Shown one piece after another: positions 3,085 to 45,027 of a stretch of 64,000 nt of DNA. The stretch spans positions 722 through 64,721 of the forward strand of contig JANXCQ010000003.1 in the NCBI GenBank assembly GCA_025060195.1, given 5' to 3'. This stretch comes from Gemmatales bacterium (lineage in GTDB: Bacteria > Planctomycetota > Planctomycetia > Gemmatales > HRBIN36). The position numbers and the translations under genes were made by a program. The number at the start of each line of letters is the position of its first letter. The first letter of the stretch is position 1. Below the pieces are notes generated by a model. It did not search any database. It was not told the DNA's origin and was given only the letters and a program-made list of their open reading frames with translations.

Positions 3085-3390
3085 TATAGCGTAGCCTAAC
3101 GTGGCTTAGCGTAACTTGTCGTAGGCATGCAGTGTGCGAAGGGGAGAGAACACGGAAAACGCGGACGTACTTATGTCCACGACTGGTAACTTGTCGTAGG
3201 TAGGCGGTGCCCGGAGGTAAGAAAATATATAACACGCGGACGTACTTATGCGTTTATGTCTGGTAACTTCCCGTCGGGAGGCCGTGTGCGGAGGTGAGGG
3301 ACTCCATAACGCAAAGACGTACTTATGTCCACGACTGGTAACTTGTCGTAGGCAGGCGGTGCGCGGAGGGGAGTAGGGTGCGTTTGGGGC
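3085..3390. repeat. Tandem repeat, four units with a 75-77 bp period (the first unit is degenerate)
   Basis: The core GGTAACTTGTCGTAGG(C/T)AGGCGGTGC(G/C)CGGAGG recurs starting at about 3110, 3185, 3262 and 3337. The second block GACGTACTTATGTCCACGACTG recurs at 3164, 3239 (diverged) and 3316. The array ends about 8 nt from the brxL stop codon. Confidence 0.85.
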
Positions 3391-3397
3391 GGGGGGT

Positions 3398-5431: not shown

Positions 5432-5440
5432 GGCGGACTC

Positions 5441-6493
5441 CTAGATGGCAATGGCGACCTCGACGGTCAACGGGGTGGCCAGTTCCACGTGGGTGGCGCT
5501 ATCCACCAGGTGGATCGTGGCCGTGGGTTGGTTGATGTCTTCTTCGAGCATCAGGGCGATGGTGTTGGGTTCAACTTGTTGCGGATCGGCGTCGGAGAAT
5601 TTCAGGTGGACGTCGCCTGTCGCGTCGTCGAAGCCATACGAAGCGCTCACTGGTCGGGACACTACTTTTCGACCGGCGCGGATTTCGACGCGCACCTGGG
5701 GGAGTTCGGCGCCGAAGAGGCTGGATTCGGTCGCCTGGCCGGAAACGCGGACGGAGAAGAACCGCGTGGTGATCTTGGCGGCGCCGGGGGTAAGTGTCCA
5801 GGCCATGGGGCAGAATCGCGGACGTGGCTTTGCCTTGGCCGTTACTGTCAGTACCGGGATGATCATTTCCTGGGGCGAGACCCCGCCGTGGAAGTAAGCC
5901 CGATTGCCGCTTTTACAGCGAAACACGGCAAAGCCTTTGGGCGTGGCGAATTCCAGGTCGGTTTCCAGGCCGAAGCTCTGTAACGGTACGCGCCACGAGG
6001 ACGGTGCCGAAGTGCCGGCGGAACCGAGCCAAAGGCGCCGCCGCAAGTTGACCGTGGAGCCTGCGGGAGGCTCGATTTTCATGGGCTCGGTGGTTTCGTC
6101 GGCGAAAAGGTAACCGTGGTCGGCGGTGAGGATGATGATGGTGAATCCGTGCTCGACCAGGATACGGACGACGCGCCGCAGCTGAGCCAGCAAGGCGTTC
6201 ATATGCAGACGGGCTTGGGCGATGTTATCGGTTTCGCCCAGTTCGTCAATTTCCTGCGAGGTAACTACCAGGAGCGTTGCCTGGGCCAGGTCTTGTTCCC
6301 GGCGTTTATTCGGTTTGGGCAACAGTTGTTCCAATTTACAATCCCGCACGTTGCAGGACACGCGTTCGCGGATATACTGGAGACGGTCTTTACGGTCTGC
6401 GATGACTCGTGCGCCGATTTTCACGCCAAGGCGACCGTCCTTGAGCGCGACCAACCCCAGGGATTGGTGCGCTTCGGGCAGCAAGGCGGCCAT
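5441..6493 (-). CDS. pglZ: PglZ, C-terminal fragment (PglZ/alkaline-phosphatase-like domain remainder), separated from the N-terminal fragment by an in-frame TAA
   Basis: It starts MAALLPEAHQSLG... and contains LTADHGYLF (the DHG metal-ligand motif). It is in the same frame as ORF 6500-8032, since both end coordinates are 1 mod 3. Confidence 0.85.
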   Translation of the reverse strand: MAALLPEAHQSLGLVALKDGRLGVKIGARVIADRKDRLQYIRERVSCNVRDCKLEQLLPKPNKRREQDLAQATLLVVTSQEIDELGETDNIAQARLHMNALLAQLRRVVRILVEHGFTIIILTADHGYLFADETTEPMKIEPPAGSTVNLRRRLWLGSAGTSAPSSWRVPLQSFGLETDLEFATPKGFAVFRCKSGNRAYFHGGVSPQEMIIPVLTVTAKAKPRPRFCPMAWTLTPGAAKITTRFFSVRVSGQATESSLFGAELPQVRVEIRAGRKVVSRPVSASYGFDDATGDVHLKFSDADPQQVEPNTIALMLEEDINQPTATIHLVDSATHVELATPLTVEVAIAI

Positions 6494-6499
6494 ACCGAC

Positions 6500-8032
6500 T
6501 TAGGTGACCGTGGGCACGGTGGCCAAGGCGGGACGCAGTTCGACTTGGAAATCGTTTTCGAGCAAGCGGGCCAGTTCCCGTCCCATCTCGAACCGCAGGG
6601 CATCCACCCAGACGTAAGCGACTTTCTGGCCGCTTTGCAGGTGGGGTTTGACGACTTTTTCGAAAATTTCGCGTTGCTGGAGCAACGCCTTGGCGGGGAA
6701 TCTGGTCTTGTGGAGCAGGTCGAAGAACAGTTCGGCCAGCTTGGTGCCGACGGTTTCATACTCCTGGCGGGCCCGCGTGGTCAGTTTGTGCAGTTGGTCG
6801 TAGTCGTCCTCGGCGGTAAACTCGAGGTTATGGCGGCGTTGTTCGAGGTGGCGGTGACAGGTATCGAGGAGGCACCAGGGTTGGTCGGAGGCGGCGTAGG
6901 CGTGCACCAGTTCGGCGAGGCTGGACGGCGGCGATTGGAGTTGTTGGCGGATGTGGTCGGCGCAGAGAAGTAGTTCGGCGGCCACGGCTACCAACGCCCA
7001 ATACGCCTGGAGGGTCGGTTCCACTTCGGCCCAGAAACGCGAAAGCCGCCGCTGCGCTAACTCCAGCAGCTCGCGCCGCGGGCCTTCGAGCAGTTGTTGT
7101 TCGGCGTATTGGAGCAGGACTTTGTCCAGCACGGGGAAGGTTTCCAAGTGCTGACAGGCAAGCGCGGGCAGGGGGAGCCGGTGCAGTTGATACTGTTGTT
7201 CGACCTGGCGGGCCCAGGCGCTATAGCTGTCGCGATATTCCCGTTGATTCCGCCAGGCCTGGGCCAAGCGCAGACAGGCATCCCGGGCCAGCGGATTCTG
7301 GGCCACGGGCACGGAAGCTAACGTGGACGGCCAACTCTCCTTCAGACCGTGATACAGTTCGCTGAGCAACACATGGCGCGCGAAGTGTTCCCGTAACATG
7401 GTCAGCGAGACGCCGTCGCGCACCGACAGTTGGAATCGTTCGCCCAGCATCTCGCGCAGTGGTTGGACAAGTCGTTTTTCCTCGAGAGCGGCGTCGTATT
7501 TGTCGCTGGCGACGAAACGCAGGGCGACTTCCTCGGCGTCGTCGCTGCCGAAGACCGACTTGAGCAAGGCGGAGAGCGGTTTGTGGGGTGCAGCCAGGGC
7601 GTCCAGGAAAGCCAGGTCGAGTTGCTGCTGGTCGAGGCGTTCGAGCACCGCGGCCAGGTCTTTGTCGGGGAGCATGCCTTGCAACACCCGCCGGGCGAGC
7701 ACGCTGGGGCGCGTGTTGTGGGTCAGCGACGGATGCCCCGGACGCAACACGGTGCCCGCGGCTTCCAACTCAACCAGGGCATGGTGCGTATCGGCCGGGT
7801 CGCACGGTACGTACACCAGCAAGCGGGGCGGTTGTTCGTCGTTGAGCAAGGGGTCCACTTCGTAGCGCAGTTGGAAAAAGCTGTTGTTGCAGGTTACGAT
7901 CTTGGCGTCGGGCAGCGTTAGCTGGTCAACTACGGGACGATAGAACCCCTGGGGGTCGTACCAGACGACGATCCCATGCTTGTCGAGCAGTTCGGCGAGC
8001 AACTTGGTGACGTAGTCGCTGACGGCACCCAT
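6500..8032 (-). CDS. pglZ: PglZ, N-terminal fragment, ending at an in-frame TAA (6500-6502)
   Basis: It begins MGAVSDYVTKLLAELLDKHGIVVWYDPQGFY... and ends ...VAYVWVDALRFEMGRELARLL...ATVPTVT*. Reading across the stop gives TVPTVT*VGMAALLP, the conserved PxxT..GMAALLP segment of PglZ. Confidence 0.85.
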   Translation of the reverse strand: MGAVSDYVTKLLAELLDKHGIVVWYDPQGFYRPVVDQLTLPDAKIVTCNNSFFQLRYEVDPLLNDEQPPRLLVYVPCDPADTHHALVELEAAGTVLRPGHPSLTHNTRPSVLARRVLQGMLPDKDLAAVLERLDQQQLDLAFLDALAAPHKPLSALLKSVFGSDDAEEVALRFVASDKYDAALEEKRLVQPLREMLGERFQLSVRDGVSLTMLREHFARHVLLSELYHGLKESWPSTLASVPVAQNPLARDACLRLAQAWRNQREYRDSYSAWARQVEQQYQLHRLPLPALACQHLETFPVLDKVLLQYAEQQLLEGPRRELLELAQRRLSRFWAEVEPTLQAYWALVAVAAELLLCADHIRQQLQSPPSSLAELVHAYAASDQPWCLLDTCHRHLEQRRHNLEFTAEDDYDQLHKLTTRARQEYETVGTKLAELFFDLLHKTRFPAKALLQQREIFEKVVKPHLQSGQKVAYVWVDALRFEMGRELARLLENDFQVELRPALATVPTVT

Positions 8033-8069
8033 GGCTGGCTACCTGATGCGGGGCCTGGCGGTGCGCCGA

Positions 8070-11000
8070 TTACGGCGTGGCGCGGACCAGGCCTTTTTGC
8101 CGCAATTGCTGGGCGATGGACGACCACGGATACTTCCCCGCGAGCAATTCGTCCCAATATTTTTTGGCTTCCTTCCAAGGGACGAGTTCCCACAAATGGG
8201 CGATGGTGAGCACGACGCCGTCATCGCGGTCGGGGCGCAGCTGCAAGCGGGCGGCACGCTGCAATTTGTCGGCGAAGTCGCGCAGTTCGCTGAGCAAGTC
8301 TTGCTGGCGTTCCAGGTCGCGGTCCAGCCGCTTACTGACGTTGCCCGCGGCCTGGGCCTTTTGTTGTTGCAAGGCGGCGAGGCGATTTTCCTCCCGGCGG
8401 ATTTTCGGTTCGACGTAATGCAGCCTCGCTTTAAACAGCAGGTCCTCGTCGAGCTGGTGATAGTAAAGCCACAGGGCGAAGTTCCCTTTAGAAGATTGTA
8501 GCAGCCAGTAAATCGGGGCTTTGCGTCGGCTTTTGGAATAGCGGGCGAGGTGGTCGTGCCAGAAACCGCCCGGGCCGGCGCGACGGAAATATTCCCGCAG
8601 GTCGCGCACGCCCAGGGCGCGGCAGGCTTCCTGTTCGACCTGTTCGGCGGCGTCGCCCCAGAGCAGGTCAAAGACGTCGCGGACGCGGCGGACGATGTCG
8701 TCGGTATGTTCGGGGTCGTCCACCAGGATGCCGTTCCACTGAATGGCCAGCGGATAGCCGGGCGGTGTTTCGCTCAACGGCAGACCGTCTTCTCCCTGGA
8801 GCATCCCCGGCGGACACACCGGCAGCGGGTCAAACGGATCGGGCAACGGCGGCGCTGCTTTCTCCCCCGTCGCATACCGCACATCCCACCGCCCAAACAC
8901 ACACCCCACCGCGTAAGAGATAACTTCCCGTGCTCGTTTTGCCCGATCGTCTAGCTGTTTCTCGTCGCTCGCATCGCCATTATCATCATCAAACCAGCCT
9001 TGATTATGCACGGCGACAGTTATGGACAAAGCTTCCAATTGAGCTCGCTCTTGCTCGTTCAAGCCGTAGGCTTCGTAAATAATGTCGTCAATCAGTTGGG
9101 ACGGCTTACTCGGGGGCTCAGGACGAGTTTGGTAGGAGGTAAACTCGTGTGCAGTCTCGTCGTAGTTTTTGTATAGTGCGAACTTATAACACTTTTGAGC
9201 CTCCGCAACGAGAATACTCGAATACTTTCGAAGATCTGGGTAGGGGACGATTCCCAATACTCCAACTTCATAAGATTTGGCGATCATGGAAGTGCCAACA
9301 ATTAAGTCCACTAAGCAGCTAAAAGCGGATGAATTCATGAACGCTAAGGCAAGCCATAAATCCGTCTCGTTGGTGGCAAAACCGCCGCTGCCTTTGACCG
9401 AAATTATCGCTCCCGCATTGAGCACTCTCGGCCCGAACCTTTTCGAGGTGCGTTCACTCCATGTCAATCCTGGGCGAAAGTAGTAATCGGTGTTTCGAAG
9501 GCATGAATAGGGGCGTCCCGTCTCGGGGTCTCTGAAATTCCTAATTTCCTCCCCGTCGCGTTCCCAATTGATGACGAGGTGTAAGTCGGCGTAAAAGGGA
9601 CTATACTCGCCGCCCTTGGCGAAGGGCACCCAGCGTTTGCCTTCGAAGGTGCGCTGGCGGCACCATTGTTGAAAGGCCTTGAGGTCGCGGCGCCAATCGG
9701 GACCGTGGCGGGCATCGAGGATCTTCTGCGGGTCCACTTCCCACCAACAGCGAACGAAGCGAAAATCGTCGGCGGTTTGGAGCCCGACGCGCACGGTGCG
9801 GCCTTCGCTCTGGAACGGGGGCAGTTCGCGGAACAAGCGACGAATCCGCTCGGAGACCCAATAGGCGAACGGGCTGCCCGGGACCAGGCGAAATTGCTCA
9901 GGCGCCACCGGGAAGACGTCGGGGTGAGGCTGGTCGGCGAGGTAAGCGGCCCGGGCCTGGGCCAACGCCTCCGCTTTGTTCTCATGGTGCAACATGCGGA
10001 AAAACACGGTCGGCGCCGCGGACGGTGCGGCGGACGGAGTCGCTTTGGCCAAACAGTAGGCGGCAGTTTCGACCATGGCGGTGTCGAGCACGCCATAGCC
10101 CAGGTCGGCCACCACCAGGAGCCGCGCTTCCCGTAATAAAACTTCTTCCCGCCATTTCTGGAAACTGGAGAGGAAAAATCCAGTGCGGCTGGTCAGGGCG
10201 CCCAGCAGTCCGTCCGGGAGCAGACGCCGTAACGCCATTTCCACAAACGCCGCATACAGGTTATGTTTACTCCGCGGATAAGCCCGTTCCAGATAGGCCT
10301 TGAGCGCTATGGGATAGTCGCCATAGGGCGGATTCATCAGGATGACGTCGTAGCGCTGGTGGCACAATTCGACGAAAGCCAGTCCCTGGGCGGTATCCTC
10401 GGCAAAGAGCCGGCGCTGCAGACCGCGTCCGTTATCGGCCCGCTGAGCATGGGCGCGTAAGGCGGCGACGACGCGCTGCTCGGCTTGTTCAAAGAACTGG
10501 GCATCGGACAAAGCGCTCACGGCAAAGAGCCGCGGCGGCTCGGAATCCGGGGCGTCGAACATCGTCCGCTGCCACGCCCCGCCCCCCGCGAGGAATTGCC
10601 GATGCGCTTCCTGGACGGCGTCGCGGAGGTCGTCCTCGATGAGTAACAGCGGCCCCGCTTCTCCGGCCAGTTGCATCTTGTCGAACACCACTTCGACCAA
10701 CTGGCCCAACAGCTGCGGCTCCAGGCTGGCCACGAACTCGCGGAGCAACTGGCGCTCGCCCGGCATCGGTTCGGCACATACGAGATGGGAACGGGTAATC
10801 TTGGGCCGCTCGCCACTTAGGCCGAATTGCCGATACGCCCGCTGACACCGCAGCCATAACGCCAACGCCGCCACCTGAATCGCCCGCGGATCGATATCCA
10901 GGCCGTAAAGATTCTCCGCCAGGATGAGCCGGGGCAGGTCGCGATACAGCGCCGACTTGTCGGGATAGTCGCGGCGAAGAGCGGGGCCCAGGTCGGGGTC

Positions 11001-11654
11001 GTCGTGGGCCTCGTCGTAAATGTCCAACAGCAGGTCGAAGCAGTAAAGCAGGAAATGGCCGCTGCCGCACGCCGGGTCGAGGATTTTCCAGAGCCGCGGA
11101 TCCTTTTTCGGTCGCCAAGCCGACGGCGAACGGTCGGGCACGAGATAGCGGCAGCGCTCGGTCAGGCGTGTCGCCCCGTGGCGCATTTCGTACCACAATC
11201 GGCCCAGCGTGTTATCCACGAGAAACTCGACCACATAGCGGGGCGTGTAAAACTGATTGCGAAAGGCCAGTTCGTAGGCGTTGCGCGGGGCGCGACTTTC
11301 CTGGCGTGCCTGGGTGCGTAGTTCCGTGGGCGTGAAATACTGATAGACCCAGCCGAGGGTTTCGTCATGGTGCCAGACGTCGGCCAAGGCGGGGTCGTTG
11401 AGACAGGCGAGCACCTGGTCGAGAGCCCGCTGCGGCGGATACAGCCGATTGGCCGGATCGTGCGGACTGAAGAGCACGCCGATCTCTTCCGCCAGCCGCT
11501 GCGCCAGCCAGTCGAGGAAATGGCGGTAGGCGAGTTCGTGCTGGCCCGCATAAAACAGCGCGATGCGCCTCGGGATGCTCGGCGAGGTAAAGCTGAAAGC
11601 CTTCGGAATAGACGCCGCGACTGACCGCTTCGCGAAAACGCTGCCCGCCGACAT
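8070..11654 (-). CDS. pglX: BREX methyltransferase PglX (paralogue 2), main fragment downstream of a frameshift
   Basis: Family-like sequence starts around 11570 (RRIALFYAGQHELAYRHFLDWLAQ...). It carries WVYQYFTP, FYTPRYVVEFLVDNTLGRLW, the SAM motif KILDPACGSGHFLLYCF and catalytic DVILMNPPYG. The BREX-PglX C-terminus reads PIYWLLQSSKGNFALWLYYHQL...VVLTIAHLWELVPWK. Confidence 0.88.
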   Translation of the reverse strand: MSAGSVFAKRSVAASIPKAFSFTSPSIPRRIALFYAGQHELAYRHFLDWLAQRLAEEIGVLFSPHDPANRLYPPQRALDQVLACLNDPALADVWHHDETLGWVYQYFTPTELRTQARQESRAPRNAYELAFRNQFYTPRYVVEFLVDNTLGRLWYEMRHGATRLTERCRYLVPDRSPSAWRPKKDPRLWKILDPACGSGHFLLYCFDLLLDIYDEAHDDPDLGPALRRDYPDKSALYRDLPRLILAENLYGLDIDPRAIQVAALALWLRCQRAYRQFGLSGERPKITRSHLVCAEPMPGERQLLREFVASLEPQLLGQLVEVVFDKMQLAGEAGPLLLIEDDLRDAVQEAHRQFLAGGGAWQRTMFDAPDSEPPRLFAVSALSDAQFFEQAEQRVVAALRAHAQRADNGRGLQRRLFAEDTAQGLAFVELCHQRYDVILMNPPYGDYPIALKAYLERAYPRSKHNLYAAFVEMALRRLLPDGLLGALTSRTGFFLSSFQKWREEVLLREARLLVVADLGYGVLDTAMVETAAYCLAKATPSAAPSAAPTVFFRMLHHENKAEALAQARAAYLADQPHPDVFPVAPEQFRLVPGSPFAYWVSERIRRLFRELPPFQSEGRTVRVGLQTADDFRFVRCWWEVDPQKILDARHGPDWRRDLKAFQQWCRQRTFEGKRWVPFAKGGEYSPFYADLHLVINWERDGEEIRNFRDPETGRPYSCLRNTDYYFRPGLTWSERTSKRFGPRVLNAGAIISVKGSGGFATNETDLWLALAFMNSSAFSCLVDLIVGTSMIAKSYEVGVLGIVPYPDLRKYSSILVAEAQKCYKFALYKNYDETAHEFTSYQTRPEPPSKPSQLIDDIIYEAYGLNEQERAQLEALSITVAVHNQGWFDDDNGDASDEKQLDDRAKRAREVISYAVGCVFGRWDVRYATGEKAAPPLPDPFDPLPVCPPGMLQGEDGLPLSETPPGYPLAIQWNGILVDDPEHTDDIVRRVRDVFDLLWGDAAEQVEQEACRALGVRDLREYFRRAGPGGFWHDHLARYSKSRRKAPIYWLLQSSKGNFALWLYYHQLDEDLLFKARLHYVEPKIRREENRLAALQQQKAQAAGNVSKRLDRDLERQQDLLSELRDFADKLQRAARLQLRPDRDDGVVLTIAHLWELVPWKEAKKYWDELLAGKYPWSSIAQQLRQKGLVRATP

Positions 11655-11979
11655 AGACCTGGTGGACTTCCATCATCTTGTAGGCACATAAGCGGTTCAG
11701 GTGGGTGAAAGCGACTTCGCGGACGAGTTGTTCCAGGGCGTCGGCGGGAGCGAAACCGCGGGCTTGGGCATGTGCGAGGTAATCGAGCAAATCGCGGCGG
11801 GCCTGCAGTTCCTGCGGCGTCAGATGCTTGAGCCGGGCCTCCGGTTCGATATGCAGGCGGCGCGCCCGTTCCAGACGAATGCCAAAGCGGCCCTCCAGTT
11901 CCTCGCGCAGGGCCGGTTCGAGGATGCGGCGACATTGGGAGACGGCGAGCCGCAGCTGATTCCGCGTCGCCTGGTCCAT
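11365..11979 (-). CDS. pglX: PglX (paralogue 2), N-terminal fragment upstream of a frameshift; only about 11979-11575 is family-like
   Basis: The fragment reads MDQATRNQLRLAVSQCRRILEPALREELEGRFGI...VREVAFTHLNRLCAYKMMEV...EGFQLYLAEHPE. It parallels the N-terminus of paralogue 1 (...RETAFTWLNRLVAFKMLEA...NGYLLWLADH). After about 11575 the frame yields Ala/Arg/Gly-rich nonsense. Frame 0 mod 3 here versus 2 mod 3 for the main fragment. Confidence 0.8.
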   Translation of the reverse strand: MDQATRNQLRLAVSQCRRILEPALREELEGRFGIRLERARRLHIEPEARLKHLTPQELQARRDLLDYLAHAQARGFAPADALEQLVREVAFTHLNRLCAYKMMEVHQVYVGGQRFREAVSRGVYSEGFQLYLAEHPEAHRAVLCGPARTRLPPFPRLAGAAAGGRDRRALQSARSGQSAVSAAAGSRPGARLSQRPRLGRRLAP

Positions 11980-11982
11980 AGC

Positions 11983-14187
11983 CTACTCCACGATCACAGT
12001 GCATCCCTGGTCGAGATGGCGTTGCACCGTGCGGCGGAGCTGGTCGAGGAAGGCCTCGAGGTCGTGGGACGATTGGAGCCGGCGGGGTACCAGGTCGGCG
12101 AGGCGTACCCGCACCTCGCGTGTCGTCGGCGTTTCAGGCGTCAGGCATGCGCGGAGCCGTTCCAGGACCTGGTCGCGAAACCCGCGCACTGCGGCCAGGT
12201 CGGATTCCAATTGCTCTAGCGAAGTGCGTGCGGGGCGCACGCCTTGGGCGACGTCGGCACGTTCCTGGTCGCGGCCCAGACGTTCGCGGAGCGCTTGTAC
12301 CATTCGTTCGGCCTGGAGACAGTCGCGTTGGGCCAGGGCCTGGTAGTCGGCGTGGTTTTGAATGTGTTCGAGGGCCTCGCGATAGGCAGCGGCGCGGCGG
12401 TCAAACAGATCGAGAAACACGCGCTGGTACGTTTGCCAAAGCCGCTCGGTGTGCTCCTGAAGCACGTCCCATTGCTCCAGGACGCGCTCGGATTGGAGGA
12501 GGTCCTCTAACTTGCGGACGCCGGCTTGCAGCGGTGCGGCCTCGTCGCGGCGAGCCAACTGCGGCCAAATCTGCTCGACGGCCAGGCGGGCCCGCTGGAA
12601 AGTTTGTAAGTGAGCCTCGGTGAATTGGTCGCGGTAGCGCCGCAGTTCGCGGTGCAGATGCAGCAGATGTTGGCCGTGTTCGTCGAGCAGACGCACGCGG
12701 TCTTCCCCCGAGGCGTCGCTCATCCGCCGCAACAGTTGCGCGTAGTCGTCGAGCCGGCGGGCGATCGGCAGCCGGTATTGGTTGACCTGGAGGCGCAGTT
12801 GCATCAGCTGGTCGAGCGTTTCCTGAGCGAACTGCTTGGCCACGGTGGCGATGTGCGTTTCCTCGGCCCGCACTTCCTGGCCCGTGAGATGCTCCAGGAC
12901 TTGCGCCGTCTGTTTGAGCACCTGCACGTCGAGGGAGCGCCGCGGGATAAACGCGGCCTGGCGGAAATACGACGGCTTGGCAAACAGGTTCACGGCCATG
13001 GGATCGTGGGCCTCGGTGAGGCGTTGGCAGCTGGCGAGCACCTCGATTTTGCGGGCGCGGAACAACGTGGCCAGCACCAAGCGGACAATCTCGGGGTCCC
13101 AGCCATAGGGCGGTCGGCGGAAATGTTGTTCCACCTCCTTGCCCAGCAACTTCTCGCGGTTGCCGTAGCTATGTTCCGTTTCCAGGTAGCCGAGCACTTC
13201 CTTGACCAGCGGGGCCGACATGTCCAGGACGAAGTGGCCTTCTTGCTGCTTGACCAGTGCGGCCTGGGCGTCGAGCGCCCGTAACACGTGGGCGACGTCC
13301 CGCAGGTCGTGGGCCTGGAGAATCCGCTCCACCTCCGTGCCGCTGGGTTGGAACGTGGCCAGGCTCAGCTGCGGATAAATGCGGGGCACTGCGGCGGCGA
13401 GTAACCGTTTGAGCTTTTCGGAGAAACTTTTGCTCGCGGTGCCGGCGTCGTGGACCCCGCCGGGATCCTGCACGCCGCGAAACATCCCGCTCCCCTGGCT
13501 TAGCGCTTCGCTCAACTTGGTGCGCAGTTGCTGGGCCAGGTTATCCAGACGGTTCTTTTCCTCCTGGAGCAAGGCGGCTTCGACCGGGCTGAGTTGCTTC
13601 TGCGCCCGTTGTTCTTCGTAGGTTTGCACCATGCGCTGCGAGGCGTAATATTCGGCGATGAGGCGATCGATCTCCGGCGTCAGGCAGAAGACCCAGAAGA
13701 CGGCCTGTTCACGGGCGCGCTCGCGGCTTTCTTGGCGGACTTCCTCGACGCGGGTACTGAAGGCGTCGAGGTCGTCGGCCACGGCCAGGTGCAGTTCCAG
13801 TTCCCCTTCCTCGAGGAGCGGCGTATCCTCCAGCTGCACGCGGAGACGGAAGCTCCGCAGGTTCTGATAGCGATACGTTTTCAGCTCCGGTTCGCTGAAG
13901 ATGTCGCGGAGGAAGTTGCGTAACACTTCCCGCCGGTCGCGTTGCCGGGGTTCGAGATATTCCGCGCGTTTCCGTTCCCAGGTTTTTTCCTGAGCGGTCT
14001 GGAGTTTCCATCCTTCGTCGGTCTGGCGGATGAACTGGCCCTGGCTCAGGCGTTGCAGCGCCGCCTCGACTTCGCGCGCGGGCTTATTCTGCCCCACAGC
14101 ATCCACGAGGAAGGCCGCGATATTGGCAGCGGTCCGGGGAAGGTCGCGGACGAACTCCAACAGACAGATCACCTTGGCCACGCGCAA
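11983..14187 (-). CDS. brxC: BrxC (PglY-like ATPase), C-terminal fragment downstream of an in-frame TAG
   Basis: This 734-aa fragment is in the same frame as 14257-15666 (both 0 mod 3). Reading across the stop gives ...VYDLVEDNLS*ERRHDLDQIRERLSLDPQDQGWSLRVAKVICLLEFVRDLPRT.... It is a long helical region typical of the BrxC C-terminal half. Its stop lies 3 nt before the pglX start. Confidence 0.82.
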   Translation of the reverse strand: MRVAKVICLLEFVRDLPRTAANIAAFLVDAVGQNKPAREVEAALQRLSQGQFIRQTDEGWKLQTAQEKTWERKRAEYLEPRQRDRREVLRNFLRDIFSEPELKTYRYQNLRSFRLRVQLEDTPLLEEGELELHLAVADDLDAFSTRVEEVRQESRERAREQAVFWVFCLTPEIDRLIAEYYASQRMVQTYEEQRAQKQLSPVEAALLQEEKNRLDNLAQQLRTKLSEALSQGSGMFRGVQDPGGVHDAGTASKSFSEKLKRLLAAAVPRIYPQLSLATFQPSGTEVERILQAHDLRDVAHVLRALDAQAALVKQQEGHFVLDMSAPLVKEVLGYLETEHSYGNREKLLGKEVEQHFRRPPYGWDPEIVRLVLATLFRARKIEVLASCQRLTEAHDPMAVNLFAKPSYFRQAAFIPRRSLDVQVLKQTAQVLEHLTGQEVRAEETHIATVAKQFAQETLDQLMQLRLQVNQYRLPIARRLDDYAQLLRRMSDASGEDRVRLLDEHGQHLLHLHRELRRYRDQFTEAHLQTFQRARLAVEQIWPQLARRDEAAPLQAGVRKLEDLLQSERVLEQWDVLQEHTERLWQTYQRVFLDLFDRRAAAYREALEHIQNHADYQALAQRDCLQAERMVQALRERLGRDQERADVAQGVRPARTSLEQLESDLAAVRGFRDQVLERLRACLTPETPTTREVRVRLADLVPRRLQSSHDLEAFLDQLRRTVQRHLDQGCTVIVE

Positions 14188-14256
14188 CGACCAGCCCTGA
14201 TCCTGCGGGTCGAGGCTGAGCCGTTCCCGAATCTGATCCAGGTCGTGCCGACGTTC

Positions 14257-15666
14257 CTACGAAAGGTTGTCTTCGACCAGGTCGTACACCTTGTCGAGCG
14301 TGACCAGCGCGCCGATGGGCTTTTGGGCGTAGTTGGTGCGTTCGTGCACGAGCATTTCGTAGGTTTGTTTGATGATGGTGCGGTTACTGCCGCCCAGGTG
14401 CCGCGATTCGCCCAACTGTTGCCGCAATCCCGACATGATGCTGATGCACAGATCAATGTAATGCGGTGGATAGGGATAAAAGTGGGCGAACTCATCGGCG
14501 CTGAGATGGGTGTGCCGCGTGGTGCGTTCCAGGCTCAGCGCCTCATGGAGCACGCCTTCATGCTGGCGGAACAGCTCGCGCAACAGATGCTCCCCCTCGG
14601 GTTTCTTGGCCAGCACTCGTTTCGACGCCACTTCGCGAATGTCCGAAGGCGGCAAGTCCACGCGGATGCTGAAGCGGTCTTGCAACTTGGCCAATTCGAC
14701 CCGCCGCGCATCTAACGACGACACCACCTCGTCGAGCTTCTCCTGCGAGGTCACGATGATCCAGCACGGGGCGGGAATTTTGCCTTGTTTGACGAGATTT
14801 CTGCCCACCCGGCCAAACTCTTCAACGGTGGCGCGGAGGTCTTCGATTCTCTCCTCGCTGGTGGCGACGTGTTGGCCCACTTCGTCAATGATGAACACCA
14901 AAGCCTGTCCGGGGCGGCGCCGGCCCCATAACTCAAAAGTCCGTTGCACGATCTTACTGACCGAAAGCGGTTCGCGGCGTTGGCCGTGGACTTGGGCCCA
15001 GGAATCGGCCGTGGGGTACGTTTTCGGATCGAGCCGATGCAGGATGCTGCTGGTGCGGGCCAGGCGTTGCGCCCCTTTGCGGACGCGGCGCCACGGTTGC
15101 TGGTGCAACTCCAGACACAGCTGCTCCAACTCGGCCAGGCGACCTTCCGCTTCCAGTTCGATTTCCAGTTCGGCGAGGTCGAAATCCTCGGCGTAATCGA
15201 GTTCGCGGAGCAACACACGGTACATGATTTCCGCGATGCGTTGCGTCGCCAGGCGGGTGTCGCGTTCCTTGGCCACGTCGAAGAAGATCACCCCCGTACG
15301 CCACCGGGCATGGATATTATCCAACAGGTCGGCCAGTTCCGGGTCGTCCATGCGCTCTTTGAACCACTCGGCAAAGGGGCGCCCGCGGATGCGGGGATTG
15401 TGCAGAGCGTAGCCGAGATTCTTGACGAACGAGCTTTTGCCCGAGCCGAAGAAGCCCGAAACCCACACGCCGATCCCTTCGCGCAGTTCGCTCGGCGCCT
15501 CGGCCATGGCCCCGAGCAATTGCCGATAGTGCGCTCGGATACTCGGCGTGGCCACATACTCCATGATTTCCTGATAGACCGACTCCTCATCGGCCTGATC
15601 CACTTGGATGATTTCCTGGATTTTGCGAGACAGGTCGCGGGCGATGATTTCGCCGATGGTCTTCAT
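14257..15666 (-). CDS. brxC: BrxC (PglY-like P-loop ATPase), N-terminal fragment, ending at an in-frame TAG (14257-14259)
   Basis: The true start is the ATG at 15666 (MKTIGEIIARDLSRKIQEIIQVDQADEESVYQEIMEYVATPSIRAHY...). Walker A is GFFGSGKSSF. Its ATG overlaps the TGA of the upstream gene (ATGA at 15663-15666). The 721-aa ORF-track entry 14257..16422 is an artefactual upstream extension. Confidence 0.85.
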   Translation of the reverse strand: MKTIGEIIARDLSRKIQEIIQVDQADEESVYQEIMEYVATPSIRAHYRQLLGAMAEAPSELREGIGVWVSGFFGSGKSSFVKNLGYALHNPRIRGRPFAEWFKERMDDPELADLLDNIHARWRTGVIFFDVAKERDTRLATQRIAEIMYRVLLRELDYAEDFDLAELEIELEAEGRLAELEQLCLELHQQPWRRVRKGAQRLARTSSILHRLDPKTYPTADSWAQVHGQRREPLSVSKIVQRTFELWGRRRPGQALVFIIDEVGQHVATSEERIEDLRATVEEFGRVGRNLVKQGKIPAPCWIIVTSQEKLDEVVSSLDARRVELAKLQDRFSIRVDLPPSDIREVASKRVLAKKPEGEHLLRELFRQHEGVLHEALSLERTTRHTHLSADEFAHFYPYPPHYIDLCISIMSGLRQQLGESRHLGGSNRTIIKQTYEMLVHERTNYAQKPIGALVTLDKVYDLVEDNLS

Positions 15667-16646
15667 GCGGACAACCCCCGATGCAGTTGCCGACTCAGGC
15701 TCGACCATGAATAGTGTCCCTGGAGCAGTTGCTGCCAATATTTTTTGGCGTCGGGGAAGGGCACCAGTTCCCACAGCGGTGCCAGGTTCAGCGCCACGCC
15801 GTCGTTGATATCCGGCACCAGGCGCAGTTCCGCGACGCGCCGCAGCTTCTGCTGAAAGTCGCGCAGTTCTTCGAGGCGTTCCAGTTGGTTTTCGATGTCC
15901 TGGGCGAGTCGTTTGGCTTCGCGGGGCAGTCGGGAGCGGCTCTCGCGGGGCGGCAGCGTTGTGGTGCTGCCAGCGCTGGCGCTGCCGGCGTGCGACGCCT
16001 GCCACGCCGCAAAACGGGCCCGCAGTTCGGCCAAGCGCTTTTCTTCCCAGCGGCACCGCGGTTCCACCACCTTGTGCAGCACCTTGAAGAGCGTGTCCTG
16101 GTCGTAGCGTCGGGCAAAGAGCCACACGCCGAAGTTTTTCCGCCCCGACAGCAGCAACCAGTAGATCGGGCGCTTGCGATATTGCGACAGAGGGCGTTTG
16201 AAAAACGGCAGGGCCAGGTCGTCGGCCAGACGGTCGAGCACCGGACCCGGGCCACACGCCTCCGTGACTATAACTTCCGCCGCGGCTTCGCCGTGACGCC
16301 CTTCCAGGACGCGCCACACCGCTTCGGCCAGGGGACGACCCGCTTCGCAAAAGGCTTCCGCTTCCAGGACGCGGCCGACGGCCCAACTGAGCCACGCCTG
16401 GGCCAAACGCGTCCGGGTCCACGCCGCGGGAGGCGCCTCCGCTTCCTCGCTCGGTTCGTCCTCGGGCTCGGCGTCGTCATCGGCCGCGGGACGCGCCGCT
16501 AATTCCGCCTCGATGGCCCGACGGTCGCTCTCCGAGATGCCGTAGAGCCGATACACTTCCTCGTCGATTTCCCATTCGATTTCCGCCAACTGGCGATGGC
16601 GCTCGGCCACACGCTCCACGCCGTCAGGCCAAGCCGGCGGTTCCAC
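15663..16646 (-). CDS. PglX-like methyltransferase (paralogue 1, pglX'), C-terminal fragment after an in-frame TAG
   Basis: The fragment contains ...EWEIDEEVYRLYGISESDRRAIEAEL...PIYWLLLSGRKNFGVWLFARRYDQDTLFKVLHKVVEP...INDGVALNLAPLWELVPFPDAKKYW. This matches the PglX paralogue 2 C-terminus block for block. It shares the frame (2 mod 3) with 16680-17114 and 17163-19448. Confidence 0.85.
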   Translation of the reverse strand: MEPPAWPDGVERVAERHRQLAEIEWEIDEEVYRLYGISESDRRAIEAELAARPAADDDAEPEDEPSEEAEAPPAAWTRTRLAQAWLSWAVGRVLEAEAFCEAGRPLAEAVWRVLEGRHGEAAAEVIVTEACGPGPVLDRLADDLALPFFKRPLSQYRKRPIYWLLLSGRKNFGVWLFARRYDQDTLFKVLHKVVEPRCRWEEKRLAELRARFAAWQASHAGSASAGSTTTLPPRESRSRLPREAKRLAQDIENQLERLEELRDFQQKLRRVAELRLVPDINDGVALNLAPLWELVPFPDAKKYWQQLLQGHYSWSSLSRQLHRGLSA

Positions 16647-16679
16647 GAAATCCCACGTCGTTTCGTCCTCCCGACTATC

Positions 16680-17114
16680 CTACTTCGCTAACTCAATCGC
16701 TTGCTCCACCAAACGCTCCAGCTTCTCGCTCGACTGCTGCGGTATCGGCAACCGCGATAGATCCCCGACTTGAGTATTTACTGTCGGATTAACCAAGGTG
16801 ATCAGGTGATAGAACATACTGCTATTCATGACACCAAGTATTTGTGGAACATTGTCGGCAAATAGCCCTGCAGTTGCGTCGGCAAAAATAAAGCCCTCGG
16901 GCATCAGTCTAGCACTGAATCGGCTCGAGCTGACCTTGGGACACGTGATGCCGCGGCGGAAGTAGTGTTCCGTGTTCCTAACTACCCATTCCCACTTTCC
17001 GTCTAGGTATGAATAACGTTCGCAAACATAAGCTTTGATTTCGGCGCCGTCGTTTTCCCAATTCACGACATATTCCTGATTGCCATACCATCGGCGAAAC
17101 CTGCCACCTTTCAT
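16680..17114 (-). CDS. PglX-like methyltransferase (paralogue 1), middle fragment between an in-frame TGA and an in-frame TAG
   Basis: MKGGRFRRWYGNQEYVVNWENDGAEIKAY...NTEHYFRRGITC... aligns with paralogue 2 FAKGGEYSPFYADLHLVINWERDGEEIRNF...NTDYYFRPGLTW. It ends at the TAG at 16680-16682. Confidence 0.85.
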   Translation of the reverse strand: MKGGRFRRWYGNQEYVVNWENDGAEIKAYVCERYSYLDGKWEWVVRNTEHYFRRGITCPKVSSSRFSARLMPEGFIFADATAGLFADNVPQILGVMNSSMFYHLITLVNPTVNTQVGDLSRLPIPQQSSEKLERLVEQAIELAK

Positions 17115-17162
17115 GTAGGGGAACCAGCGTTTTTTCGACTGTTTGGCTTCCTCGGCGTTTTT

Positions 17163-19448
17163 TCAGTCGAAGGCGATCCGCTCTTTGCCCACCTCCCACC
17201 AGAATCGGACGAAGCGGAAGTTATCTGCCGTGGTTAACCCCGGCCGCACTGCGGCCACGTCGCCGAGTTTGGGTAAGGTCTGGAACAGGCGCCGCAGGCC
17301 GGGCGTGATCCAATACACCCAAGGACTGCCGGGAATGGCGTCGAAGTCGGCTTGACGATAACGGAACACGGCGGGGTCTAGGGCGCTGGCCTCGCTCGTG
17401 GGCGGAGCGCTGGCGCCGCTCGTAGCGGCTTGGAACGCCTGACGTAACGCGGCGAGGGCCCGTTCCAGGCGCTGGCGTTTGCTTGGCGCATCGGGTTCCT
17501 TGACCAGTCGAAAATACGTCGCGACCGCCTCGGCCCGCCGCCGCTCATCGCTCTCCTTCCGCAGCACGAGCAACGCCGTATTCACCTTCGCGCCCGCGAT
17601 TTCCTCAAACGCTTCCGTTCCGAGATGGGCTAAGGTTTCGATCACGTGTTCTTGCAGCAATTGCTGCCGCAGCCGTTCGTAACTGGAAATGAACATGAAC
17701 GATTGTTGCGTCACCATGCCGAGCCGACCGCCATCTGAGAGTAGTTGCGAACCGCGGAGCAGAAAAGCCGCATAAATGTCCGTCTTTCCCTCGGGGTAAT
17801 GTTTGGCTAAGAGGTCTTTGATCACGGGGTCGAGATTCCACGCTGTGCTATAGGGCGGATTGGTAACGACCACGTCGTAGGTCTGATCTAACAGTTGGAG
17901 CAAGCGCAGGCCTTGGACGGTCTCGCCGGCAAAGAAAGTCTGGGGGATGCCCCGTGCGTCCTGGTCGCGGGCCAATTGGTCGAGGGCGTGGCGAATCTGG
18001 GCCAGGAGCGTGTCCCAAAAGTGACGCCGCGCCGCTTCCGAGCCGAATTGTTCCCGACTCCAGCCGAATAAATCGGGGTTGCGACCCGCGCGCTCGTAGC
18101 GTTGGCGTTCTTCCTCGACCAGGGCGCGAATCCGCCGCTCCAACGGCAGCAACGAGCCCAAATACTGCGACCGCTGAAGTTCTTCCTGCAACGCGGTGAG
18201 AATCCTTTGGTAGATGGGCCGCTCGCCCAGTCCTGCCTGACGCAGGAACGTGGCTAACCGCTCGCCGTCGAGCATGTGCACGTTGGCGCAGGCTAACCGC
18301 GATTCGCGGAGCGTCCGCCCGGGAGCCAGCGTCTTGGCCTTGAGATAAAGCGCCAAAGCGGCGATCTGCACCGCCCGCAGGTCAATATCAATGCCGTGAA
18401 GATTTTGCTCCAGAATCGCCGCGGGGATGTCCTCGGGATGGTCCACCGGAGGCTGCGCCGGCCAGCCCGGTTGACCCGCCCGCGCCATTTCTTCCTGGTA
18501 CATCTCCACAAACAGGTCGAACGCCACTAACCCGAAATGCATGGTACCGCACGCGGGATCGAGTAATTTGATTTCCCGCACGCTGCGAATCGGCCGTTTC
18601 AATTCCGCAGGGGTGAGCGCCTCGGGAAGCAGATAGTCCAACTTGGAGCGCAAATTGGAATCGGGATGAAGTTGGAGCCATAAGCGACCCAACGTGTTGT
18701 GCACCAGGAAACGCACCATCCACCGCGGCGTGAAAATCTGCGTGGCCGCGGGTAAATCCTCGGCGGAGATTTTGCGTTTGTGCTTGTAAAGTTGCTCAAA
18801 GATGTGGGCCTTCTCCTCTTCGACGAAAAACTGATAGACCCAGCCGAGGGTTTCCTCATTGCCGGGCTGCCAGGCTTCGGCGAGTTGGGGTTGGTTGAGG
18901 GCGTGGGCCACCTCGCGGAGCACGGCCAAGGGGGGTGCGAAGCGGGAAGCCAGATTATCCGGGTCAAACAACACGCGAATCTCCCGAGCGAGCTGACGGC
19001 AGCAGTCGAGGAGGAAACGTAAGTAAGCAGCGTCGCGCGATTCGCCCCCGCGTTGATGCTGGAGCCAGGCGTCGCGATGGTCGGCCAGCCACAGCAGATA
19101 CCCGTTGGAGTGATCCCAGCGGGAAATGGTTTCGCGGAGCCAGCGCCGGGCCTCGAGCATCTTGAACGCGACCAGGCGGTTGAGCCAGGTGAAGGCCGTC
19201 TCCCGCAGAAATTGCCGATACGCCTGCCGCGGGGTCAGGCCGCAACGCTGCAGGTCGTCGAAATGCTTGAGCAAGGCAGCGCGTAAGGAGCGACCTTCGT
19301 CGTCGAGATGCCGCAGCGGGGCGTTGGGATCGGCCACCAGTTGGCCCGACTTTTCGTAGAGGTCGTACTGGCCTTCCAGAAGCTCCGCGACGGCGCGTTC
19401 CAACCGGGCGCGGGCGTCGAGTGCCAGTCGGCGAAGCAGTTGCCGCAC
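17163..19448 (-). CDS. PglX-like N6-adenine methyltransferase (paralogue 1), N-terminal and catalytic fragment, ending at an in-frame TGA (17163-17165)
   Basis: The fragment carries WVYQFFVEEE, IFTPRWMVRFLVHNTLGRLW, the SAM motif KLLDPACGTMHFGLVAF and catalytic DVVVTNPPYS, and ends ...ADNFRFVRFWWEVGKERIAFD*. The start is uncertain. I propose the GTG at 19448, the first start codon after the brxB stop at 19466, aligned with the paralogue 2 N-terminus. The ORF-track extension to 19928 overlaps brxB and is not credible. Confidence 0.82.
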   Translation of the reverse strand: MRQLLRRLALDARARLERAVAELLEGQYDLYEKSGQLVADPNAPLRHLDDEGRSLRAALLKHFDDLQRCGLTPRQAYRQFLRETAFTWLNRLVAFKMLEARRWLRETISRWDHSNGYLLWLADHRDAWLQHQRGGESRDAAYLRFLLDCCRQLAREIRVLFDPDNLASRFAPPLAVLREVAHALNQPQLAEAWQPGNEETLGWVYQFFVEEEKAHIFEQLYKHKRKISAEDLPAATQIFTPRWMVRFLVHNTLGRLWLQLHPDSNLRSKLDYLLPEALTPAELKRPIRSVREIKLLDPACGTMHFGLVAFDLFVEMYQEEMARAGQPGWPAQPPVDHPEDIPAAILEQNLHGIDIDLRAVQIAALALYLKAKTLAPGRTLRESRLACANVHMLDGERLATFLRQAGLGERPIYQRILTALQEELQRSQYLGSLLPLERRIRALVEEERQRYERAGRNPDLFGWSREQFGSEAARRHFWDTLLAQIRHALDQLARDQDARGIPQTFFAGETVQGLRLLQLLDQTYDVVVTNPPYSTAWNLDPVIKDLLAKHYPEGKTDIYAAFLLRGSQLLSDGGRLGMVTQQSFMFISSYERLRQQLLQEHVIETLAHLGTEAFEEIAGAKVNTALLVLRKESDERRRAEAVATYFRLVKEPDAPSKRQRLERALAALRQAFQAATSGASAPPTSEASALDPAVFRYRQADFDAIPGSPWVYWITPGLRRLFQTLPKLGDVAAVRPGLTTADNFRFVRFWWEVGKERIAFD

Positions 19449-19465
19449 TTGCGCGTCCCTGAGCG

Positions 19466-20053
19466 TTACCCGTAGATTTTCACGCGATAATTGCCCCAGG
19501 CCAGGCGGTCTTTCAGGTTCATGAGGCGCAGTCCAAAAGTGCCTTCGCGGGAACCGGGGTAGAACAAGACGGTGGGCACCTGCGTGCGGCCGTGGAGTTC
19601 GTCGAGCAACTTCGACACGGGATACAGCCCGGGCGCCAACGCCGCGACGCGGGTCAGAAACACAATGTCGCGGGCAGGATGCAGACCACTGTAGTGGCTG
19701 AGCACTAAGTCGGCCAACGGACACCAATCGCGATCCGAGAGATAACAGGTCACCTGCTCCTGGGCTGGGAGAAAGCCCCATTGGCGTTCCAATTGCACCA
19801 GGGCATCGAGTCCCTCGGACTGGGCGATGGCCTGCCAGAGCAAATCGGACATCCGCACCACGTGCACGGTTTTCTGCGCCGCTTCCAGGCGCGTCTGGAG
19901 CAACCGGAGTTCGCGCCGCAGCTGCCATTCCTCGCTCGGATCGTAGCGCAGAATGGCAAAGGGGAGATCGTGACAGACAGCAATCCGCGGAGGCACCGCT
20001 TTCAGGTCATCTTCCAGGAGCTTGAGCCGCTCGCTCAACGAGGACATGGGCAT
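19466..20053 (-). CDS. brxB: BREX protein BrxB (DUF1788 family)
   Basis: The intact 195-aa ORF has ...PFAILRYDPSEEWQLRRELRLL...VLFYPGSREGTFGLRLMNL...GNYRVKIYG, the typical size and C-terminal YPG...NYR signature of DUF1788. It is the second gene of the operon. Confidence 0.8.
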   Translation of the reverse strand: MPMSSLSERLKLLEDDLKAVPPRIAVCHDLPFAILRYDPSEEWQLRRELRLLQTRLEAAQKTVHVVRMSDLLWQAIAQSEGLDALVQLERQWGFLPAQEQVTCYLSDRDWCPLADLVLSHYSGLHPARDIVFLTRVAALAPGLYPVSKLLDELHGRTQVPTVLFYPGSREGTFGLRLMNLKDRLAWGNYRVKIYG

Positions 20054-20843: not shown

Positions 20844-21087
20844 GGTCGCTTCGACTTTGTACCTCCAAGGAAACCGCGCAGGCGAGTCGGGGCAAGCCAG
20901 TTCGCCATACCTGCGGGGATAGGACGTTCTACGGAGAAAACGCGGTGCGGAGCAGAGCCTGCTGTCGCGATGTTCCCGACTAGCGCGACGCGGCGGAAAC
21001 ATTATTATCGACGTCCATACTGCAGGCCTGTCCCACGCCGCGGCTTGCGCGTTCCGCCCAAGCAGCCAGCGAAGTGTTTCCGATCCG

Positions 21088-22410: not shown

Positions 22411-22569
22411 GCGACAATGGTTAAATTCGATGCCCGCCCGTTGACTACGTCACGGACTCTTCCCACAATTATTAACAAGACTAACACCGGGTTTTCACTT
22501 AGCATAACCAATAGCAGCGTCGGGCTATGACTTCATAACCCCGACTCATCACCATCAGGGGGAATAACG

Positions 22570-45021: not shown

Positions 45022-45027
45022 GGCCTA

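Follow-up and report, generated by a model that had tools for sequence, protein, structure and literature searches.

Interrupted reading frames in a type-1 BREX operon of an uncultured Gemmatales bacterium: probable fixed pseudogenisation of a defence island

The minus strand of the 64,000-nucleotide window analysed here (the whole stretch of DNA under study) carries, between positions 3398 and 20843, a type-1 BREX operon that includes one additional methyltransferase gene, in a member of the Gemmatales (Planctomycetota). Four of its genes, pglZ, brxC, pglX' and pglX, are broken, by premature stops at four positions and by a single frameshift. This raises the question of whether the operon has been lost, is recorded incorrectly, or is still expressed by an unusual route. 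A reading of the sequence alone had offered three answers: repeated nonsense inactivation of a costly or autotoxic system; sequencing, assembly or population-consensus artefacts; and expression as split subunits, by read-through or by reinitiation. On the evidence below, we assign a probability of about 0.7 to fixed pseudogenisation followed by neutral decay (approximately 0.7% divergence), with loss of BREX function.

PADLOC and Pfam searches resolved seven genes on one strand in the order brxA-brxB-pglX'-brxC-pglX-pglZ-brxL, with all six type-1 signature genes (brxA, brxB, brxC, pglX, pglZ, brxL) in a single cluster and in canonical order. Three genes are intact, as previously claimed, and their matches span the PADLOC profiles from end to end. 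These are brxA (20007-20843, minus strand; 278 aa; BrxA profile PDLC02445, E = 6.6e-39, profile positions 3-260 of 262), brxB (19466-20047, minus strand; 193-195 aa; BrxB profile PDLC02459, positions 6-203 of 203), whose ATG is preceded by the Shine-Dalgarno (SD)-like motif GGAGG, and brxL (3398-5431, minus strand; BrxL profile PDLC02506, E = 9.5e-289, positions 6-678 of 680), which encodes a 677-aa Lon-like protein with the Pfam domains BrxL_N, BrxL_ATPase and Lon_C.

The remaining four genes lie on the same strand in pieces. The additional gene, pglX' (15663-19448), is spread over three ORFs matching PADLOC PglX profiles PDLC02521/02527 and the Pfam families Eco57I and N6_Mtase; it encodes a second PglX-type N6-adenine methyltransferase, located between brxB and brxC, that retains the NPPY motif and is a paralogue only about 30% identical to the canonical PglX. 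The brxC gene (11983-15666; 1227 codons), whose ATG overlaps the pglX' stop (ATGA), falls into two ORFs (BrxC profile PDLC02476, positions 6-461 and 482-1179 of 1180) and retains the Walker A motif GSGKS. The canonical pglX (8070-11979; about 1300 codons; PglX profile PDLC02527) occupies its usual place after brxC and is frameshifted, and pglZ (5441-8032; 863 codons) is divided into two ORFs (PglZ profile PDLC02559, positions 2-515 and 517-847 of 860). The ORF coordinates and frames first reported for these genes were all reproduced, and the catalytic motifs are intact in genes that are otherwise well preserved. Judged by its sequence, the locus is type-1 BREX by descent and not a functional member of the group, because the reading frames of brxC, pglX, pglX' and pglZ are interrupted.

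The earlier observation that family-typical sequence continues on both sides of every break was borne out, as each piece is matched by Pfam or PADLOC profiles and the orthologue alignments are continuous. The two PglZ profile pieces abut at the lesion, as do those of PglX (positions 3-132 in the upstream frame and 133-1266 of 1332 in the downstream frame). About 20 profile positions are missing between the BrxC pieces; nonetheless, tblastn alignments to orthologues run continuously over the brxC site, and those of pglX' pass through both of its stops. Comparison of orthologues, which had been proposed as a check, revealed sense codons at every stop site among sequences of at most 70% identity to the window, and no orthologue was split at any lesion site as judged from tblastn alignments and homologue lengths.

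The pglZ stop, TAA at 6500-6502 (minus strand, codon 511), stands where 31 of 34 orthologues encode Glu (GAA/GAG). It directly follows the metal-binding Thr in the motif PT[IV]T-E-[IV]GMAALLP, a residue that corresponds in alignment to T538 of E. fergusonii PglZ, whose mutation abolishes nuclease activity and lowers defence about 1000-fold (PMC12205998). The stop cuts the catalytic domain, dividing one active site between two fragments. All 119 other PglZ homologues among the matches listed are full length (860-901 aa), and alignments to the PDB PglZ chains 9nv3_C and 9zn5_B extend over the stop. In brxC, the stop is TAG at 14257-14259 (minus strand, codon 470), where each of the 78 orthologue alignments shows Asn, Ser or Thr (motif NLS[NST]E[KR]R). 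The first pglX' stop, TGA at 17163-17165 (minus strand, codon 762), lies at a less uniform site: among 60 alignments, 14 carry Cys (TGC/TGT), 25 a gap and 21 other residues; all 35 ungapped alignments have a sense codon, and Cys is found in most of the closest relatives. The second, TAG at 16680-16682 (minus strand, codon 923), falls at a variable residue that is Q in the closest relative and K, S, L or W elsewhere. The +1 frameshift in pglX lies within the non-repetitive stretch GAGGCGCATCGCGCTG (11556-11571, minus strand), with the change at about 11562-11565, where orthologues read YLAEHPE[DE]E-RLF.TGQ over the junction; a 1-nt insertion is its most likely cause.

The codons of the orthologues bear on how the stops arose. 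The suggestion that each stop is one transition away from CAA, CAG, CGA or TGG fails at two sites at least: judged by the orthologues, the pglZ TAA replaced a Glu codon (GAA/GAG) and the pglX' TGA a Cys codon (TGY), and each of these changes is a transversion. A C-to-T transition or base-editing-like signature was rejected on the same ground. The ratio of four nonsense lesions to one frameshift is rich in nonsense changes relative to bacterial pseudogene surveys, with a P of about 0.05 by rough estimate, which weighs against the favoured reading.

That the interruptions could be sequencing, assembly or consensus artefacts is a natural concern, as the source is a metagenome-assembled genome (MAG). 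Four assemblies were available, comprising two MAG depositions and the Logan assemblies of two sequencing runs, with the second MAG known from its identical protein fragments alone. Identical split ORFs occur in the two GenBank depositions, each tested fragment being represented by two protein accessions. Logan contig SRR15826899_1951 spans the operon from end to end, and each of the five lesions is present in it, with 6 SNPs and no indels relative to the window and an identical sequence at the pglX frameshift, while contig SRR15826900_9649 carries the pglZ stop at the DNA level. Across the BREX contigs that were aligned, 3-6 SNPs separate the assemblies from the window; the split ORFs recur in four assemblies that are distinguishable elsewhere, and no split gene was found in the roughly 46 kb around BREX. 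The lesions are genuine and common to every sampled assembly of the population; recurrence in two MAGs and two independent Logan assemblies effectively refutes an artefactual origin and leaves it extremely improbable.

The breaks are also specific to BREX within the window. About 30 non-BREX genes have Pfam matches consistent with intact genes, none of them apparently split, in agreement with the initial impression that the neighbours are mostly intact, and the probability that all five lesions would fall in BREX under a uniform spread over coding DNA is about 0.004.

A different possibility is that the genes are still expressed, through fragments that reassemble, through stop read-through or suppression (selenocysteine at TGA, or host or phage suppressor tRNAs), or through ribosomal frameshifting. 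Several features seem to invite it: Cys stands opposite the pglX' TGA in most of the closest orthologues, and the window also encodes selA and selB; start codons follow every stop within 2-23 codons, the restart positions given earlier (2, 23, 16 and 11 codons past the stops) being correct; and a stable hairpin begins 11 nt past the pglZ TAA (z = -2.6). Each was set against further evidence. Selenocysteine decoding of the pglX' TGA was rejected, with no SECIS-like fold found 3' of the codon (MFE -12.9 kcal/mol, z = +0.40; 126 of 200 shuffled sequences fold at least as well) and no Rfam match, and a further in-frame stop, TAG, interrupts pglX'. The hairpin is not specific to the lesion, because intact orthologues with GAA/GAG at the pglZ site reach similar z-scores, and it was discarded as a read-through signal. 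No SD-like motif precedes the restart codons, whereas GGAG(G) precedes three of the operon's seven real starts, those of brxB, pglX and brxL. No suppressor or other tRNA and no Rfam element was found in the window.

Programmed frameshifting and phase variation were likewise rejected. Tandem Repeats Finder detected no homopolymer or tandem repeat at the pglX frameshift, and no slippery motif is present there; no inverted repeats join pglX and pglX', with just three weak inverted pairs of 18-22 nt detected, and no recombinase ORF occurs in 2500-22500. To rescue three types of stop codon and a frameshift, several independent mechanisms would be needed, and, as was recognised at the outset, the use of all three stop codons means that no single codon reassignment explains the pattern. 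With orthologues unsplit at all these sites and the PglZ active site divided between two fragments, the proposal of split subunits, read-through or reinitiation did not hold, and continued expression of the genes is very unlikely. The more elaborate version, an operon held in a "safety-on" state whose stops are read through upon arrival of a suppressor (phage suppressor tRNAs, or selenocysteine at TGA) or whose fragments reassemble, would describe a costly BREX machine armed only conditionally; we regard it as extremely improbable. The pattern is most likely ordinary gene decay and not a new mode of gene expression.

What the lesions would do to the system can be gauged from studied relatives. 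A functional type-1 BREX system excludes phages and places N6-methyladenine at a 6-bp non-palindromic motif of host DNA. Restriction needs all BREX genes, and methylation needs BrxA, BrxB, BrxC and PglZ (PMC9122589). BrxC, PglX and PglZ are each required for both restriction and host methylation in other type-1 systems, so any single lesion should abolish the system, and the BREX locus is almost certainly non-functional, as far as its reading frames allow a judgement. The favoured course of events would begin with the horizontal acquisition, by an uncultured Gemmatales bacterium, of a type-1 BREX island with two PglX methyltransferases. A first lesion would have knocked out BREX, such that selection no longer maintained the operon, and further random lesions would then have collected roughly in proportion to gene length. 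On this account, four long genes were hit and three short ones spared by chance, because later lesions scale with gene length. Computed expectations are compatible with such a course: the number of lesions and their spread over the operon are reproduced by a single inactivating hit with subsequent neutral decay, and four nonsense hits imply about 90-110 substitutions, corresponding to 0.65-0.78% neutral divergence.

The contrast between interrupted large genes and intact small ones, which had first drawn attention to the locus, stands as an observation and is not significant. When lesions are placed by length, the probability that the small genes are spared is 0.33-0.37 and the probability that all four large genes are hit is 0.11, as expected from random hits proportional to length. 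Selection could nevertheless have shaped the pattern by stepwise disarmament, in which an initial knockout, in pglZ or brxC for instance, produced a harmful partial BREX system and each later knockout was favoured. All four long enzymatic genes, both methyltransferases included, were hit, which at P = 0.11 fits this scenario slightly better than chance, and the BREX genes are otherwise well preserved with intact catalytic motifs. Harmful partial states are documented in the literature: deletion of PglZ or BrxB slows growth, and in the Streptomyces Pgl system PglX and PglZ act as toxin and antitoxin (PMC9122589), and the Salmonella StySA laboratory lineage carries mutations in brxC and pglZ (PMC9009780). 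Against it, random placement accounts for the pattern without selection, the two stops in pglX' cannot both have been necessary, and a BrxC substitution at an invariant site, described below, points to ongoing drift. We therefore consider stepwise disarmament possible but unlikely. Of the original proposal of nonsense inactivation, the part that survives is that the lesions are genuine and present in every assembly; its cause, repeated selection against a costly or autotoxic system, is unsupported, as a single hit with neutral decay suffices. Loss of function and neutral accumulation, as opposed to selection, are what we infer.

Signs of relaxed constraint were sought in the genes themselves. 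The haplotype in SRR15826899 carries BrxC F849C at a position that is Phe in all 74 orthologues. A first conserved-column test was confounded, because the window PglZ is an outgroup to a tight cluster, and a pruned set was used afterwards. For changes at otherwise invariant columns, the window BrxC ranks first and PglX' second, with PglX and PglZ unremarkable; this weak and non-uniform excess may hint at relaxed constraint. SNP density between samples is 0.30-0.42 per kb in BREX and 0.23-0.29 per kb in the flanks, which is not clearly higher in BREX, and the seven BREX SNPs, a very small number, have a nonsynonymous to synonymous ratio of 3:4. Searches for a close intact relative yielded, among 5.8 billion protein clusters, only the PglZ fragment itself followed by a match of 53% identity; for BrxC, the best N-terminal match was 70%, and a scan of genome contigs likewise reached a maximum of 70% identity. 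The 90%-identity clusters tested were singletons, and the exact pattern around the pglZ stop returned nothing from JGI metagenomes. The locus could distinguish BREX loss by drift from selection against toxic partial complexes, should a closely related intact copy come to light.

If the favoured reading is correct, the locus is a clean natural case of a large defence island lost through multiple, fixed hits in a phylum that has received little study. It also calls for caution, as homology-based defence-system finders would score it as a complete BREX. In GenBank, the fragments are named as ordinary proteins, with the N-terminal PglZ fragment labelled "hypothetical protein" and the N-terminal pglX' fragment "PglX". 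The two-methyltransferase gene order is of minor interest for BREX classification.

Several known systems resemble parts of this locus. Bacterial selenoprotein genes share an in-frame TGA opposite Cys in orthologues, with selA and selB nearby; in contrast, pglX' has a second stop, TAG, and no SECIS-like hairpin, and a Cys codon is one step from TGA. Disrupted pglX genes are frequent in genomes, according to Goldfarb 2015 as summarised in PMC9122589, and phase-variable pglX is exemplified by G-tract slippage in the Streptomyces coelicolor Pgl system and by inversion shufflons in Lacticaseibacillus (PMC9122589, PMC9881135). The likeness is an interrupted BREX methyltransferase gene that recurs in genomes, but the present locus lacks a homopolymer or simple repeat at the frameshift, as well as inverted repeats and a recombinase, the point nonsense lesions are not readily reversible, and brxC and pglZ are hit too. 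Five double-methyltransferase loci in Chloroflexota MAGs (L071, L073, L074, L079 and L082) share the order brxA-brxB-pglX'-brxC-pglX at only 40-53% identity to the window; their pglX is often interrupted around residue ~650 by the insertion of other genes (WD40, TPR, NB-ARC, HicB-like), whereas the lesions here are point lesions. The type-1 BREX systems of B. cereus H3081.97, E. coli HS, Acinetobacter NEB394 and Salmonella StySA are alike in their six genes, gene order, shared strand and overlapping or close junctions, and the present operon differs in its extra pglX' between brxB and brxC and in disabling lesions in four of seven genes. In Salmonella LT2 StySA (PMC9009780), several BREX genes were likewise inactivated in one lineage, with toxic partial states discussed as a possible driver; StySA is a mutagenised laboratory lineage, whereas the Gemmatales operon comes from a natural population and bears five lesions, both methyltransferases included.

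The window sequence is part of JAVQSM010000001.1 (394 kb), from MAG GCA_033581835.1, labelled Gemmatales bacterium (Planctomycetota); adding 56946 to a window position gives the position on that contig. Pfam and PADLOC assigned strong scores to all seven genes of the minus-strand BREX operon: brxA (20843..20007), brxB (20047..19466), the PglX-type methyltransferase gene pglX' (19448..15663), brxC (15666..11983), pglX, the second methyltransferase gene in canonical position (11979..8070), pglZ (8032..5441) and brxL (5431..3398). In brxA, brxB and brxL the profiles are covered end to end, in agreement with the sequence-only reading that these genes are intact. Gene junctions are tight, as in the ATGA overlap between the pglX' stop and the brxC start, and pglX' and pglX, separated by brxC, share only ~30% identity. 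GC3 reaches 0.67–0.79 in most of the island vs about 0.55–0.65 for the majority of flanking genes, a contrast that points to horizontal acquisition. Within a 1.8-kb brxL-rpsB stretch without a called gene, a ~75-nt unit whose ends are conserved (GTAACTTGTCGTAGG...GACGTACTTATG) occurs in four tandem copies directly 3' of brxL (3111-3402); these repeats have no Rfam match, and none of the related loci that were fetched contains their conserved 15-nt end.

Translation in the previously proposed frames matched exactly, yielding four stops and one frameshift, all on the minus strand. The stops are TAA at pglZ codon 511 (6500-6502), TAG at brxC codon 470 (14257-14259), and TGA and TAG at pglX' codons 762 (17163-17165) and 923 (16680-16682). 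In pglX, a +1 frame change at about 11562-11565, within GAGGCGCATCGCGCTG, where orthologues read YLAEHPE[DE]E-RLF.TGQ, would most simply be a 1-nt insertion. The PADLOC profiles of the fragments meet at the lesion in PglZ (2-515, 517-847) and PglX (3-132, 133-1266); in BrxC (6-461, 482-1179) about 20 positions between them are unaligned, and tblastn alignments with orthologues run uninterrupted through the site. As had been proposed, the lesions are point interruptions in genes otherwise full-length.

The suggestion that the interruptions are artefacts of sequencing, assembly or consensus did not hold. Exact-protein look-up recovered identical split ORFs in Logan assemblies of two runs, on contigs SRR15826899_1951 (21 kb, whole operon) and SRR15826900_9649. 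The DNA of the former differs from the window by 6 substitutions and 0 indels, none at a lesion, so all five lesions are present there; the latter spans only 3897-11032, differs by 3 substitutions and 0 indels, again none at a lesion, and confirms the pglZ stop. GenBank holds two protein accessions for each fragment tested (MCS716635x and MDW79930xx series), indicating two MAG depositions. Because the split ORFs are common to these independent assemblies, an artefact of a single assembler or consensus is excluded, and the five lesions are real. Between-sample diversity is about 0.02–0.04% in BREX and flanking DNA alike, and the lesions are older than this slight diversity. Elsewhere at about 0.1–0.3 SNP per kb, variation has a local hotspot at 34199-34591, where six SNPs relative to the SRR15826900 assembly crowd ~400 nt of a Kelch/fn3 repeat protein gene (32471-34678).

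For orthologue comparison, a BrxC N-terminal fragment was scanned against 185,579 species-representative genomes, yielding 80 loci (<=70% identity, many phyla; L-numbers below), to which the repaired proteins were aligned by tblastn. The pglZ-511 site is Glu (GAA/GAG) in 31/34, within PT[IV]T-E-[IV]GMAALLP, and brxC-470 is Asn, Ser or Thr in 78/78. At pglX'-762, 14 of the 60 alignments show Cys (TGC/TGT), most of the closest relatives among them, and 25 are gapped; pglX'-923 is variable, the closest relative having Gln. The Glu and Cys codons imply that at least two stops arose by transversion (GAA to TAA; TGY to TGA), contrary to the transition origin previously envisaged. In a search over 5.8 billion protein clusters, all 119 other PglZ homologues listed measure 860–901 aa, the nearest at 53% identity. 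Neither these nor the aligned loci include a relative split at the lesion sites, and an intact allele of near-identical sequence is not on record. Other MAGs carry clean single nonsense codons in brxC (L060, L083) or pglX (L023), and many frame breaks occur in several loci that, judging by their names, come from long-read assemblies (L018, L028, L042, L063); isolated disruption of BREX is thus no rarity among public assemblies.

Expression as split subunits, or by read-through or reinitiation, had also been considered, and the evidence is against it. Alignment to the solved PglZ structures 9nv3_C and 9zn5_B (motif PSYTQLGMAALLP) places the pglZ TAA directly 3' of the codon for the metal-binding Thr, equivalent to E. 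fergusonii PglZ T538; when T538 is mutated, nuclease activity is lost and defence falls about 1000-fold (PMC12205998). The corresponding His motif (FHGG) is encoded in the downstream fragment, so a single active site is divided over two ORFs. A stable hairpin 3' of this TAA (z=-2.6) is not lesion-specific, as intact orthologues reach similar z at the same place. Selenocysteine decoding of the pglX' TGA would fit its alignment with Cys and the presence of selA and selB, but no SECIS-like fold occurs in the following 71 nt (z=+0.40), and pglX' has a second stop anyway. The selB and selA genes adjoin (43078-46455), the selA ATG lying in frame two codons past the selB stop, and the organism probably uses selenocysteine. 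The window contains no tRNA genes, tRNA-Sec included, and no Rfam families at gathering or permissive thresholds. GGAG(G)-like motifs precede three real starts (brxB, pglX, brxL) and none of the restart codons downstream of lesions. With no slippery or repeated sequence at the pglX frameshift and no inverted-repeat or recombinase system in the region, the lesions are not of a reversible, phase-variable type.

Disruption is concentrated in the operon. In a Pfam scan of forty further ORFs across the window, about 30 had matches fitting intact genes, including ribosomal protein S2, MoeA, an HtrA-like protease, two POR subunits, SelB, SelA, ATP sulfurylase and an FGGY kinase, and no adjoining pair held complementary halves of one family. 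This supports the earlier view of intact neighbours; against roughly 35 kb of such coding DNA, all five lesions would fall inside the 17.4-kb operon by chance with P about 0.004.

In the BREX systems studied, restriction and methylation need each of BrxC, PglX and PglZ (PMC9122589), so any single lesion should kill the system. A first lesion would inactivate BREX, and the remaining operon would then drift. The codon make-up of the four long genes is such that 3.7–4.5% of random substitutions make stops; four stops thus imply about 90–110 substitutions in 14 kb, or 0.65–0.78% divergence, which would be small enough for the genes to still look well preserved. The 4:1 ratio of nonsense to frameshift lesions is mildly nonsense-rich relative to pseudogene surveys (a rough estimate of P≈0.05), unusual under decay or selection. 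Weak signs fit relaxed constraint: BrxC F849C, present in one of the sampled haplotypes, alters a residue that is Phe in 74/74 orthologues, and, after the comparison set had been pruned so that branch lengths were comparable, the window's BrxC (12/159) and PglX' (7/110) placed first and second by changes at columns that are otherwise invariant, while PglZ (7/85) and PglX (1/91) do not stand out. Alternatively, a selected cascade of knockouts, driven by harmful partial BREX states, could account for the hits across the four enzymatic genes. PglZ or BrxB deletion slows growth, and PglX/PglZ of the Streptomyces Pgl system act as toxin and antitoxin (PMC9122589); for a Salmonella laboratory lineage with brxC and pglZ both mutated, the authors raise the possibility of ensuing selection for mutations that inactivate (PMC9009780). 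The contrast between large genes hit and small genes spared, as first described, is present, but under length-proportional placement it is unremarkable: the three short genes (3.5 kb) would expect about one hit (zero hits, P = 0.33–0.37), and the chance that every one of the four long genes takes a hit is P = 0.11. The locus is best explained by ordinary pseudogenisation of a defence island.

Five Chloroflexota MAG loci (L071, L073, L074, L079, L082) share the order brxA-brxB-pglX'-brxC-pglX. In L058, L078, L080 and L087 the pglX' clade precedes brxC and no pglX was detected downstream of brxC (two of the contigs end near brxC), and in other loci this clade is the sole methyltransferase in either position. 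A description of the two-methyltransferase layout was not found in the BREX diversity paper PMC12839542. Kilobase inserts split pglX near residue ~650, perhaps the methyltransferase/specificity-domain boundary, in L071 (16545-20720), L079 (14980-21020), L011 and L082. The L071 insert encodes a 1222-aa WD40-repeat protein and that of L079 HicB-like, TPR and NB-ARC/STAND-like ORFs; from these two, the inserts may be defence genes nested in split pglX. Gene content and order place the window locus in type-1 BREX, but its four long ORFs are interrupted, and it appears to be a relic of such a system rather than one that works. Disrupted BREX genes, pglX above all, have been noted since the first description of the system (Goldfarb 2015, as cited in PMC9122589), and the present locus is a further example of this known disruption.
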